This document shows positions 38,890-56,839 of a stretch of 64,000 nucleotides of DNA, piece by piece. The position numbers and the translations under genes were made by a program. A model generated the notes under the pieces. That model saw only the letters and a list, made by a program, of their open reading frames with translations. It ran no database searches and was not told the DNA's origin. Position 1 is the stretch's first letter; each line of letters begins with the position of its first letter. Origin of the DNA: Thermoproteota archaeon. Its GTDB lineage: Archaea > Thermoproteota > Thermoprotei_A > Sulfolobales > Ignisphaeraceae. The stretch is from assembly GCA_030550585.1 (NCBI GenBank), contig JAUQPB010000001.1:416001-480000 (forward strand), in the 5' to 3' direction.

Positions 38890-39211
38890 GGTTCCTGGCC
38901 CGCAGACTGCCACGGGGTCAAACCCCCGAGGAAACACCATCCTCCGCACAGCACCAGAGCCCCGCAAGGGGCTAGGGTAACACCCTAGGCTCTGGCACAG
39001 AAACGATACAGCTGCAAACCGATGAACATGAGGCGGCGAGGCTCCCTAGGTAACTAGGGGGCAGAAACCCGCTGAAGAGATTTGCAGCAGTGGTGAAACG
39101 GCCAGCCTCTGGGGAGTAAGGAAAACCCCGATGAACTGCTGTGTGAAGGGGTTGGAGCCGCTTAGCCAAATGCAGTCGAAACAGAAGATGGGTTACTGCG
39201 GGCCAGGAACC
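38890..39211 (+). ncRNA. rnpB: RNase P RNA
   Basis: Terminal P1 GGTTCCTGGCCCGCAG/CTGCGGGCCAGGAACC; GAGGAAAC, ACAGAAA, TGAAACGG and ACAGAAG..GGGTTA conserved regions. Confidence 0.95.
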
Positions 39212-53142: not shown

Positions 53143-54189
53143 TTGATTGTTGTTGACGGCAGTTTTGGGGAGGGTGGTGGACAGATACTTAGAACAGCAA
53201 TAGGTTTGTCAGCCGCTCTTGGTAAGTCAGTTAAAATAATTAATATAAGGGCTAGGAGAAGCAACCCAGGTTTGCAGCACCAGCATCTAACAGCTGTTAA
53301 GGCTCTTGCCCAAATCTCTGGTGCGAGGGTTGAGGGGGCTTATATAGGCTCTACACAGCTTGTCTTCGAGCCAAGGGGCTTGAGAGGAGGTGAATATGTG
53401 TTCGATGTTGGGACAGCCGGTAGTGTAACACTTGTTCTACAAGCACTCACACCTGTGCTACCGTTTCTAGATAGGGAGAGTGTTATAGAGATTAGAGGGG
53501 GTACAGACGTGCCCTGGAGCCCACCAATAGACTACATAAAATATGTATTCATACCGATTGCAAAGAGGCTTGGGCTAGACATGGAGGTAGAGCTCATTAG
53601 AAGGGGCCACTACCCAAGGGGTGGCGGAATCATAAAGGTATATGTTCGTCCATCCAAAAAGCTAAGCGCTGTAGAGCTCATAGAGAGGGGATCTATAAAG
53701 AGGGTTGGCGGTAGGTCACACTGTGTCAAGCTCCCAAAGCATGTTGCTGAGAGACAGGCTAAAGCTGCTAGAGACAGTCTATCGCATCTCTCTATACCAA
53801 TAGACATTGAGCTAGAGTTTTATGAGCCTGGCAGAGACCCTCATCTAGGCCCTGGCAGTGGTATTGTGCTGTATGCAGAGGCAGACAAAAGTGTTTTGGG
53901 GGCTGATGCAATTGGTGAAAAGGGGAAGCCCGCTGAGGCTGTTGGTAGAGAAGCTGCTGCAAAACTGTTAGAGGAGATTGAAAGTGGGGCTGCGCTAGAC
54001 AGTCACATGGGGGATATGATAGTCTCTCTAGCTTGTCTAGCAAATGGTGTCACAAGGTATACAACATCTAAGCTAACGCTGCACACGGAAACTGTTCTGA
54101 AGATAGCCAAGGACATTGCTGGATGTGATTACATGGTTCTAGACTATGGCAAGGCAAAACTCGTTGAGGTGAGGGGTGCGAGAGCTTGA
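53143..54189 (+). CDS. rtcA: RNA 3'-terminal phosphate cyclase
   Basis: DGSFGEGGGQILR, GGTDVPWSP, GHYPRGGG, DSHMGD, TLHTET. Confidence 0.96.
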   Translation: MIVVDGSFGEGGGQILRTAIGLSAALGKSVKIINIRARRSNPGLQHQHLTAVKALAQISGARVEGAYIGSTQLVFEPRGLRGGEYVFDVGTAGSVTLVLQALTPVLPFLDRESVIEIRGGTDVPWSPPIDYIKYVFIPIAKRLGLDMEVELIRRGHYPRGGGIIKVYVRPSKKLSAVELIERGSIKRVGGRSHCVKLPKHVAERQAKAARDSLSHLSIPIDIELEFYEPGRDPHLGPGSGIVLYAEADKSVLGADAIGEKGKPAEAVGREAAAKLLEEIESGAALDSHMGDMIVSLACLANGVTRYTTSKLTLHTETVLKIAKDIAGCDYMVLDYGKAKLVEVRGARA

Positions 54190-55398: not shown

Positions 55399-55491
55399 GG
55401 CCGCGGTAGCTCAGCCTGGTTAGAGCGCGGGACTGTGGGGCTAAAATGCGCAGAGATCCCGAGGTCCCGGGTTCAAATCCCGGCCGCGGCC
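55399..55491 (+). tRNA. tRNA-His(GTG) with 17-nt intron at 37/38 (55439-55455) and encoded G-1
   Basis: G-GCCGCGG acceptor, C73, CGGGA-CTGTGG[intron]A-TCCCG; BHB helix CTGT/GCAG. Confidence 0.95.
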
Positions 55492-55761: not shown

Positions 55762-55838
55762 TGTGCCCCGCCTAACCGATCTCTCCACATCTCCATCCCC
55801 ATCAACGGGTCTTTAAGAGAGACGTGAGGTAGCGGGGC
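55762..55838 (-). ncRNA. Probable box H/ACA pseudouridylation guide RNA
   Basis: Minus strand: lower stem GCCCCGC/GCGGGGC followed by ACA; internal pocket UACCUCAC / CGGUUAG; upper stem GUCUCUC/GAGAGAU; apical GA-rich possible K-turn; 14 nt from pocket top to ACA. Confidence 0.7.
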
Positions 55839-55940
55839 CAAGCACAAAACTCTTCTCATAGCTAATAAAACTTAATCAAAGTTGTTCCACTTTAATTTCA
55901 TTGAATAAAAAACTGTTTAAGAATTTTGGTGGGGCCGTTT

Positions 55941-56017
55941 TGGTAGCGGGGGGTGGATTTGAACCACCGACCTCGGGGTTATGAGCCCCGCGGGCTGCCA
56001 GGCTGCCCTACCCCGCT
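55941..56017 (-). tRNA. Initiator tRNA-Met(CAT), CCA encoded
   Basis: A1-U72, consecutive G-C pairs in the anticodon stem (CGGGG-CTCATAA-CCCCG). Confidence 0.96.
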
Positions 56018-56083
56018 ATTTCACGGCCCCATTTCTCACATATTCTGTTTTTGTGCCTAAAAAGTGTTTTGTTTCGTTGAGTT

Positions 56084-56731
56084 TCAAGCTATTGATATGA
56101 GGCGGTTTAAGCTTGTTGATTGTTTTAGCTCTAGCAGCTTTGGCTTTATATACTTTATCCTATTCTTTAGCGTTGCAACAAGTCTGTGCATGTGTATTCT
56201 ACTTATAGACGCCTCTTTAGCTATCTTATTGATGTCTGCTTCTCCGTATAGTATAATATTCTTTAGAATGAGTGCGATGGCTACTTTGCTTCTAAAGGTT
56301 CTAGATGATAGTATGGGATCCTCATCTATTATCTCGAGAATTCTTTTCAGCAAATGATCTCCCTCAACAATTTTTTCAAGGTTTTGGTCAGAAATATGTC
56401 TGTATACCCTAGCCTTGCCCCCAGCTAAAACAGTTCTTAATGCGTGTAGATCAACTCTAATATCATTGTTTCGGGCTCTGCTCAGATATTTTTCATACAA
56501 TCTAATCTCTTTGTTGAGTCGTCTAAGCTTTGATGCATATTGAGAGCTTCTCTTAAGGTTCAGAGCTTCTCTGGTAGTAGGCTTGGAATACTCCCATTCA
56601 TCGCTACTTGCAACACCTATGAACTGCTCTATGAATATGGATTCTATAACTGTTCCACAGTTTCTGCAAACTGTGTAACCCTTCTCGAAATCAAATGCAA
56701 CATCTTGGGAGTTGCAATATGGGCAAATCAT
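56084..56731 (-). CDS. TFB-type zinc-ribbon protein (truncated TFB / TFB3-like)
   Basis: MICPYCNS...GYTVCRNCGTVIE TFIIB ribbon; lacks the full cyclin repeats; start moved to ATG 56731. Confidence 0.75.
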   Translation of the reverse strand: MICPYCNSQDVAFDFEKGYTVCRNCGTVIESIFIEQFIGVASSDEWEYSKPTTREALNLKRSSQYASKLRRLNKEIRLYEKYLSRARNNDIRVDLHALRTVLAGGKARVYRHISDQNLEKIVEGDHLLKRILEIIDEDPILSSRTFRSKVAIALILKNIILYGEADINKIAKEASISRIHMHRLVATLKNRIKYIKPKLLELKQSTSLNRLISIA

Positions 56732-56839
56732 TTTCTTATACCAATTTTTGGAGAAGCTGTACAAGTTTATAAAATGGTATGTAAAGGTCAATTCATACAC
56801 AGTGTCTGCAGACCGAAACTATTCATATACGATTAAAAA

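Follow-up and report, generated by a model that had tools for sequence, protein, structure and literature searches.

A conserved acceptor-like helix of leader and trailer encloses the initiator tRNA gene in Thermoprotei

The window analysed here is a stretch of 64,000 nucleotides from a Thermoproteota archaeon of the family Ignisphaeraceae (GenBank assembly GCA_030550585.1, contig JAUQPB010000001.1, positions 416,001 to 480,000 of the forward strand), whose genome, labelled G000 among those compared, comprises 1.76 Mb at 41% G+C. On the minus strand of the window lies an initiator tRNA-Met gene whose leader and trailer are complementary to each other. Read directly from the sequence in the 5′ to 3′ direction, the unit consists of GGGGCCGT (56030-56023), GAAAT (56022-56018), the tRNA (56017-55941), AA (55940-55939), ACGGCCCC (55938-55931) and ACCA (55930-55927). 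The outer pairing joins GGGGCCG(U) at 56030-56023 with (A)CGGCCCC at 55938-55931 and encloses the complete tRNA. This nested layout is confirmed, and the preliminary description of it, made from the letters of the window, proved exact in its order and coordinates. We refer to the 5′ strand GGGGCCG (56024-56030, positions −13 to −7 relative to tRNA position 1) as O5 and to the 3′ strand CGGCCCC (55931-55937) as O3; both were assigned from sequence and predicted fold, and O3 co-varies with O5. A single-stranded 5′ spacer of 6 nt, UGAAAU (56018-56023), ends at the RNase P site, a 3′ spacer AAA (55938-55940) separates the inner CCA end from O3, and O3 is followed by an outer discriminator-like A and a templated CCA (55927-55930). 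The helix was originally described as a perfect one of 8 bp; all eight pairs are present here, the eighth between the first U of the 5′ spacer and A55938, but the conserved core measures 7 bp, the U-A pair being possible in only 27 of 68 loci.

The inner gene is intron-free and 77 nt long. ARAGORN reports it as tRNA-Met(CAT) at 55941-56017, and the Rfam tRNA model RF00005 matches over its full length at 55944-56017 with 65.8 bits. Archaeal initiator tRNAs are marked by an A1-U72 pair and by consecutive G-C pairs at the base of the anticodon stem. Consistent with this identity, the inner tRNA shows A1-U72 (AGCGGGG...CCCCGCU), GGGGCUCAUAACCCC, a CAU anticodon and a templated A73-CCA (55944-55941), and a second CAU tRNA, with a G1-C72 stem, is encoded elsewhere in the genome (C4:180878). 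The gene is colinear and complete, neither split nor permuted. The minimum free energy (MFE) fold of the 113-nt stretch combines the cloverleaf with the outer helix at −59.2 kcal/mol (z = −4.53), which none of 200 shuffled sequences equalled. The flanking elements gave no match to any Rfam family.

A TATA-like box, TTTTTAGG (56056-56063, minus strand), the putative promoter of the unit, stands upstream with 25 nt between the box and the first G of O5. In relatives from several families, comparable boxes were located by eye 21-27 nt before O5, and the base preceding O5 is a pyrimidine in 60 of the 70 clamp-bearing loci defined below. From this box it had been proposed that transcription begins around the first G of the outer helix; the spacing fits both in the window and in its relatives, and it is this spacing that points to a start near that G. 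The boxes of other G000 tRNA genes stand 34-38 nt from the mature 5′ end, compared with about 39 nt for the initiator, so the leader is of ordinary length and only its sequence and pairing are special. On the 3′ side, a run of six T (55907-55912, minus strand) is a weak candidate terminator by sequence, with a shorter TTCTT at 55919-55923; a T-rich pentamer occurs within 10 nt of the outer NCCA in 23/70 loci, which is weak evidence for a terminator.

Within G000, the leader/trailer duplex of the initiator reaches −21.3 kcal/mol, against −12.7 kcal/mol or weaker for the other 45 ARAGORN tRNAs shorter than 200 nt. Among 2,070 mismatched leader/trailer pairs of G000 tRNAs the first percentile lies at −15.4 kcal/mol, a value that the initiator alone passes, and among 20,000 random genomic leader/trailer pairs 33 reach −21.3 kcal/mol and 130 contain a perfect helix of at least 8 bp. 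The flanks are thus specific to the initiator within this genome, and in the relative G308 the initiator is likewise the sole tRNA past the first percentile of mismatched controls. We also considered, and rejected, leader/trailer pairing as a general tRNA trait: true and mismatched sets were alike in G000, G308 and G025 (Mann-Whitney p = 0.64, 0.24 and 0.48, respectively). As a separate observation, the sole tRNA of G025 beyond the first percentile is another one (locus L278, C1:412402-412596), with a GGGCCCG stem, G73 and a 12-bp G/C leader/trailer helix. These single-genome statistics are suggestive only, and it is conservation and covariation in relatives that settle the reality of the helix.

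A 181-nt query matched 41 of 41 related genomes, the match often spanning both flanks. Throughout the window's family, GGGGCCG stands at −13 to −7 and CGGCCCC-ACCA behind the tRNA, with a 3′ spacer that varies in sequence and length; other families of the order carry GGCGGGG and CCCCGCC-(G/A)CCA in place of these strands. O3 follows the tRNA end even where the gene holds an insert of 0.7-1.1 kb (L025, L026, L030, L158-L162). The preliminary description had staked its case on whether the flanks are complementary and conserved in relatives, and they are both. In one relative with a complete genome, G037, two initiator-region copies with identical match scores were observed (C1:1360352-1360438 and 786548-786634); the first (L020) was read and is nested.

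The search was extended to public genomes with a 20-letter pattern taken from the tRNA 5′ end, which returned at least 120 stretches, from which loci L031-L150 were parsed. Among the matches listed, the flanks occur only in records named Desulfurococcales, Desulfurococcaceae, Acidilobaceae, Pyrodictium/Pyrodictiaceae, Thermosphaera, Sulfolobales, Thermoprotei or Thermoproteota, and were not found in methanogens, Thermoplasmata, DPANN groups, Nitrososphaeria or Bathyarchaeota with the same tRNA start. A class-wide scan for GG-N-G-NN-G, six N and the tRNA start, with its 6-nt spacer fixed, found a GG-initial G/C-rich 7-mer at −13 to −7 in 176 of 351 genomes; the reversed pattern, used as a control, found none. 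By family, the matched genomes were 21/25 in f1, 25/29 in f2, 13/14 in f6, 7/8 in f7, 43/67 in f8, 5/6 in f9, 45/63 in f10 and 7/8 in f11, with 1/2 and 5/7 in f14 and f15 of another order, and 0/52, 0/9 and 0/7 in f3, f17 and f18. One f17 locus that was read (L187) has A/T-rich flanks and lacks the helix. The low count in f13 (1/47) is an artefact of the pattern, because a direct search, which matched 39 of the 47 f13 genomes, shows the element there with other sequences: GGTAGGG/CCCTACC, GGCGGGA/TCCCGCC, GGCTGGA/TCCAGCC, GGCGGGG/CCCCGCC and GGCGGGG/CCCTGCC.

In total, 176 distinct loci were parsed, and in 77 the 7-mer at −13 to −7 had a partner at all seven positions (Watson-Crick or G·U). 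Seven of these were dropped, namely L005, L138, four A/T-rich cases outside the class and L201 (four of seven pairs G·U), leaving 70 loci; L005 and L138 are real elements, but their 5- or 7-nt spacers put them out of register in the fixed 6-nt scan. A swap test that permitted G·U pairs was too lenient (495/4,094) and was replaced by a Watson-Crick test on fixed 45-nt trailers. There, an exact complement of O5 was present in the locus's own trailer in 61 of the 82 loci with a GG-initial G/C-rich 7-mer, against 46 of 4,094 when O5 was compared with trailers of a different O5 type, and 3 of 94 among the remaining parsed loci, mostly initiator loci outside the class; two of these three are L005 and L138.

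The outer helix is conserved with compensating changes in at least six sequence types (GGGGCCG/CGGCCCC, GGCGGGG/CCCCGCC, GGTGGGG/CCCCACC, GGTAGGG/CCCTACC, GGCGGGA/TCCCGCC and GGCTGGA/TCCAGCC), to which G·U variants are added. Since the O3 forms CCTCGCC, CCTTGCC, CTTTGCC, CCCTGCC and TGGCCCC, with C changed to U, pair only through G·U, the constraint acts on the RNA of the minus strand, that is, in the sense of the tRNA. MAFFT placed O3 out of register in three groups, and counts were taken from a covariance model instead, searched at E ≤ 1e-21 (a looser search drew in neighbouring tRNAs and antisense matches). In the resulting alignment of 67 intron-less loci, 16 of them lacking a clear partner, changes on both sides occur at all seven outer pairs and 94.2% of cells pair, while the tRNA's own helices show one to three pairs each with both sides changing. 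As a whole, the structure outscored every one of 500 shuffles on each of five measures, and every slid control as well.

Across the 70 loci the anatomy around the helix is regular. The spacer from O5 to A1, which the scan fixes at 6 nt, begins with U in 55 loci, and position −1 is a pyrimidine in 69. Between the inner N73 and O3 lie 1-32 nt; O3 directly adjoins the inner A76 in L004 and the inner A73 in L218, and in intron-less genes of the window's family the spacer measures 0-9 nt beyond the inner CCA. NCCA follows O3 directly in 61/70 loci, which upholds the earlier account of a helix of acceptor-stem length (7 bp) with a discriminator-like base and CCA behind it. The identity of that base varies (A 37, T 14, G 13, C 6), whereas CCA is retained. 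Both inner and outer CCA are present in 45 loci, the outer alone in 16, the inner alone in 4 and neither in 5; of the 21 loci that template no CCA in the inner gene, 16 have the outer NCCA. Templating differs strongly between genomes (5/46 tRNA genes in G308, 42/43 in G025, about 39/46 in G000), contrasts that agree with the figures given in PMC5143459, 3.8% for Sulfolobales and 84.8% for Desulfurococcales. In G308 the outer helix ends in TCCA although the inner gene lacks CCA, and the outer CCA is thus selected on its own. In the window's RNase P RNA, the terminal helix (P1) is followed by ACAA, not NCCA, so stable RNAs here do not share a tRNA-like end as a rule.

The strands themselves invite the question of their origin. 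In the window, the outer stem equals the acceptor stem (7 bp), the U8 and the A73 of both G000 tRNA-Pro genes, neither of which has a templated CCA. The resemblance to tRNA-Pro/Trp that had been suggested for the element does not generalise: it holds in the window's family only, while others use GGCGGGG, GGTAGGG, GGCGGGA, GGCTGGA or GGTGGGG. A scan for GGCGGGG-N58-88-CCCCGCC in five relatives (G025, G032, G037, G034 and G015) gave matches in two, none of them tRNA-like by eye, in a pattern that intron-bearing tRNAs would escape. The likeness to tRNA-Pro looks like a coincidence between G/C-only 7-mers. The idea that the outer stem derives from a missing tRNA-Pro(CGG) was likewise rejected, as the tRNA at C4:315456-315570, outside the window, is probably tRNA-Pro(CGG) and has a GGGCCCG stem; ARAGORN calls this gene Leu(CAG) with an intron, and its Pro-like D and T arms and CUCGGGA stretch suggest tRNA-Pro(CGG) with two insertions.

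For most lineages, replacing A1 by G in the 5′ acceptor strand of the tRNA yields O5, and replacing U72 by C in the 3′ acceptor strand yields O3. One genus has a leader that repeats the first 13 nt of the tRNA in tandem (GGCGGGGTAGGGC before AGCGGGGTAGGGC). Among 40 loci with longer spacers, O3 is preceded by five G-rich bases in 18, often as AGCGGGG or GCGGG, that is, a third copy of the 5′ strand. These three features fit a tandem duplication of the gene followed by internal loss, a route that PMC3978253 proposes for permuted tRNA genes. The outer strands are therefore most likely the duplicated termini of the initiator gene itself. The earlier suggestion of one tRNA gene inserted into another is less likely than this, the outer strands resembling the inner acceptor strands. 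Duplication of an attachment site by an integrated element does not fit either: the copies lie 3-30 nt apart, the fixed position of the 5′ partner is not expected from integration, and no integrase was found among six neighbouring open reading frames (ORFs) scanned.

Those six ORFs comprise a TFIIB-type zinc ribbon, a primase large subunit, a phosphoesterase, RtcA and two without matches. The zinc-ribbon ORF (56084-56800, minus strand) lies directly upstream of the initiator promoter. The gene for RtcA, an RNA 3′-phosphate cyclase (53143-54189, plus strand), is located about 1.2 kb from an intron-bearing tRNA-His (55400-55491, plus strand) and 1.8 kb from the initiator tRNA. Beyond the initiator unit, about 100 nt downstream at 55762-55838 on the minus strand, there is a conserved hairpin of about 77 nt that ends in ACA (−37.2 kcal/mol, z = −4.3). 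The same element stands behind the initiator tRNA in L003, L009, L010 and L027; it has no Rfam match and is a candidate H/ACA guide RNA.

Among known systems, the element belongs with leader/trailer processing helices and with mimics of tRNA ends. As in archaeal rRNA processing stems and the helices of split and permuted tRNAs, the leader and trailer of a stable-RNA precursor pair through G/C-rich strands and join the ends. These helices occur in the same lineages as the element, with split tRNAs known from Desulfurococcales and a permuted initiator tRNA from Thermofilum (PMC3218864). The arrangement here differs in that the strands measure only 7 bp, end in N-CCA and flank a colinear tRNA.

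The bulge-helix-bulge, the substrate of the splicing endonuclease, has two 3-nt bulges on opposite strands with a 4-bp helix between them. In the present element a 6-nt loop lies opposite 1-32 nt, and the 4-bp central helix cannot form. Bulge-helix-bulge and kink-turn readings of the internal loop were accordingly rejected on inspection, the 6-nt strand facing AAA and the unpaired ACCA.

Elements resembling tRNA ends, such as the t-elements of Haloferax and the mascRNA of MALAT1, have RNase P, tRNase Z and the CCA-adding enzyme as their likely readers. With minihelices and such elements the outer helix shares a 7-bp acceptor-like stem, a discriminator-like base and CCA, to which some families add a T-arm-like hairpin. 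It differs in enclosing a complete functional tRNA and in having a 5′ strand that would form the first nucleotides of the transcript, and the window's family has no T-arm-like hairpin. The acceptor stem of the G000 tRNA-Pro genes has the same 7 bp, U8 and A73; the outer stem differs from it in bearing no tRNA body.

Ordinary precursor tRNAs can also pair a 5′ leader with the 3′ flank, and this can affect RNase P; pairing of the leader with RCCA inhibits formation of the catalytic complex, as PMC9433436 states. Such pairing extends the acceptor stem directly and is unconserved, whereas here a 6-nt loop intervenes, one tRNA only is concerned, the helix is class-wide and it carries its own CCA. 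The literature deals with archaeal tRNAs that are split, permuted or interrupted by introns, with the templating of CCA and with substrates of RNase P. In a literature search that covered few subscription journals, we did not find a description of a conserved acceptor-like leader/trailer helix around initiator tRNA; it is apparently undescribed, although an earlier mention is possible.

The reading that we favour, and to which we give about an even chance, is that the helix clamps the precursor: both of its ends would be sealed in a nuclease-resistant, tRNA-like terminus, while cleavage by RNase P would still be possible. Transcription would start on the first G of O5 or no more than about 2 nt away. 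Once the full tRNA has been transcribed, O3 in the trailer would pair with O5 to form a G/C-only helix of acceptor length whose 3′ N-CCA overhang copies the terminus of a mature tRNA. The 6-nt leader, with its pyrimidine at −1, and the inner A73(CCA) would then lie single-stranded in the internal loop between the two helices, which would keep the RNase P site accessible. CCA is an anti-determinant for tRNase Z. The intact clamp could keep the ends paired at 80-95 °C, shield them from 5′-3′ and 3′-5′ exonucleases and, through its CCA, from tRNase Z, and hold the exons together in intron-bearing versions. RNase P cleavage at A1 would turn the clamp into a two-piece duplex of 7-8 bp that dissociates at growth temperature, and the freed single-stranded trailer would be removed to leave the mature 3′ end. 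Since the RNase P cut would release the trailer, we propose that 5′ processing precedes 3′ processing.

A nearest-neighbour model gives values consistent with these steps: the outer helix in cis forms with p = 0.94 at 85 °C and 0.89 at 95 °C, and the leader:trailer duplex left after the cut at A1 has a modelled Kd of about 26 µM at 85 °C and about 1 mM at 95 °C. As for the machinery, an archaeal RNase P RNA is encoded in the window itself (38894-39207, plus strand, 176.8 bits), and the genome encodes a CCA-adding enzyme (401.7 bits, above the cut-off) and an RNase Z-like ORF below the family cut-off.

Several points weigh against a clamp. It is absent from G015 (L017), which belongs to the same genus as the window's genome, from one f13 genus (L200, L203, L204, L213) and from L211 and L217, and O5 is found without O3 in genus g11 (L028, L029, L170-L175), in L100 (an unplaced record named Sulfolobales) and in L097, L114, L201 and L205. 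Having been lost or reduced in several lineages, the clamp is not essential everywhere. Where O5 occurs alone, it matches the 3′ strand of the tRNA itself, and a decoy model, discussed below, fits at least equally well. Other tRNAs do without a clamp, including the A1-U72 tRNA-Gln of G000, and the specificity for the initiator is left unexplained by it. Stabilisation of A1-U72 was rejected as the role of the clamp, the modelled gain being small (pairing of 0.87 with and 0.81 without it at 85 °C). In the GC-rich relative G025, the initiator duplex is not exceptional (−26.3 kcal/mol against a control first percentile of −32.8). The model-fitted alignment favours the structure to which it was fitted, though the 45-nt swap test is independent of it. 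Finally, the start site, the transcript ends and the processing intermediates are all deduced from DNA; of 15 sequencing runs listed, none is recorded as RNA.

It is possible, if unlikely, that the outer stem is instead a working second acceptor end, in which a 5′-triphosphate G1, 7 bp and N-CCA are read by the CCA-adding enzyme, a synthetase or aIF2, which would couple production of the initiator tRNA to that reader, or that a released leader/trailer minihelix acts alone. Such a role agrees with a helix that is exactly 7 bp long, G/C-only and always GG-initial, and with the retention of NCCA (61/70 overall, 16/21 where the inner CCA is absent). A T-arm-like hairpin of 4-6 bp abuts O3 in several families (L016, L088, L094, L122, L066), which also speaks for it, but the hairpin is missing from the window and its family. 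Dual binding by aIF2 is a further argument for it: according to PMC3936769, the gamma subunit of the Saccharolobus factor binds both initiator tRNA and 5′-triphosphate RNA ends. The discriminator-like base, on the other hand, varies among A, G, U and C, and so no single synthetase identity emerges; genus g23 of family f8 lacks the outer CCA in 5/5 distinct loci counted; and the two-piece 7-bp duplex would not be expected to survive 85-95 °C in the model.

The introns of the initiator genes bear on another unlikely explanation, in which the additional 7 bp act like the long G/C helices of split tRNAs and hold a short 3′ exon in place at high temperature from endonuclease cleavage until ligation. 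The initiator gene is a frequent intron site in this class: introns interrupt 25 of the 70 clamp-bearing genes, and nine of these span more than 300 nt from A1 to position 72. In relatives, introns lie in the T loop at 59/60 (L018, L022, L023) or in the anticodon loop (L019, L027), and the long inserts of 0.3-1.1 kb (L025, L026, L030, L158-L162, L186) include two whose ORFs match Pfam LAGLIDADG_3 (L025, E = 2.5e-9; L161, 1.8e-4, under the cut-off). Roughly 20 loci of the class without O3 showed no long insert, and split tRNAs of the same lineages carry 14-bp G/C-rich helices (PMC3218864). Yet 45 of the 70 clamp-bearing genes, including that of the window, are intron-free and keep the helix with covariation, and the association between intron and clamp is small and phylogenetically confounded. 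We also observed that the T-loop intron position is the position of permutation in the Thermofilum initiator tRNA gene.

Improbable in our view is the decoy model, in which O5, as a near copy of the 5′ acceptor strand, competes for the 3′ strand and yields an inactive fold that delays or tunes maturation, for example with temperature, with O3, where it exists, serving to park O5. In most lineages O5 (GGCGGGG) differs from the inner AGCGGGG at position 1 alone, a similarity that descent from a duplication would explain equally well. Lineages without O3 retain O5, and MFE folds of their precursors swap the leader in for the true 5′ strand; the best evidence comes from L201 and L205, where O5 (GGCGAGG) tracks a changed inner strand (AGCGAGG). 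Against this, the O5 of the window's family (GGGGCCG) is unable to pair with the inner 3′ strand, and in f13 the changes in O5 follow O3, not the inner strand AGCGGCG.

Less probable still is a transcript with two tRNA ends, the outer one being an elongator-type version of the initiator's acceptor stem (a 5′-triphosphate G1, a 7-bp helix of G1-C72 type and a templated N-CCA) and a ligand for a reader of tRNA termini such as aIF2-gamma. If this were true, initiator tRNA would be made in step with, or buffered by, the pool of the initiation factor, and the unit would be a living case of a minihelix into which a body has been inserted, as has been proposed for how tRNA arose.

Alone among the alternatives, a non-functional relic, whether leftover ends of a tandem duplication, an old 3′ end stranded by a homing-endonuclease cassette or the trace of an integrating element, is clearly disfavoured and very improbable: the resemblance of the outer strands to the tRNA's own, the third 5′-strand copy in many trailers and the loss of the clamp in some lineages would suit it, but compensatory change at seven of seven pairs, transitions that form G·U only in the RNA sense, the fixed position and retention of the outer CCA across at least two orders indicate selection, and the ORF scan described above yielded no integrase.

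Initiator tRNA is essential and single-copy in these genomes, and its maturation in archaea is largely unstudied. Annotation pipelines that report just the 77-nt tRNA miss the outer element, which also records how the termini of a gene may have been duplicated and then recruited as structure. The element raises questions about the order of RNase P and 3′ processing, about CCA as a protective or recognition signal in archaea and about how precursors survive at 80-100 °C. It would imply a dedicated maturation or protection step for the initiator tRNA of hyperthermophilic Thermoprotei, a class that includes the cultured Pyrodictium and Thermosphaera.

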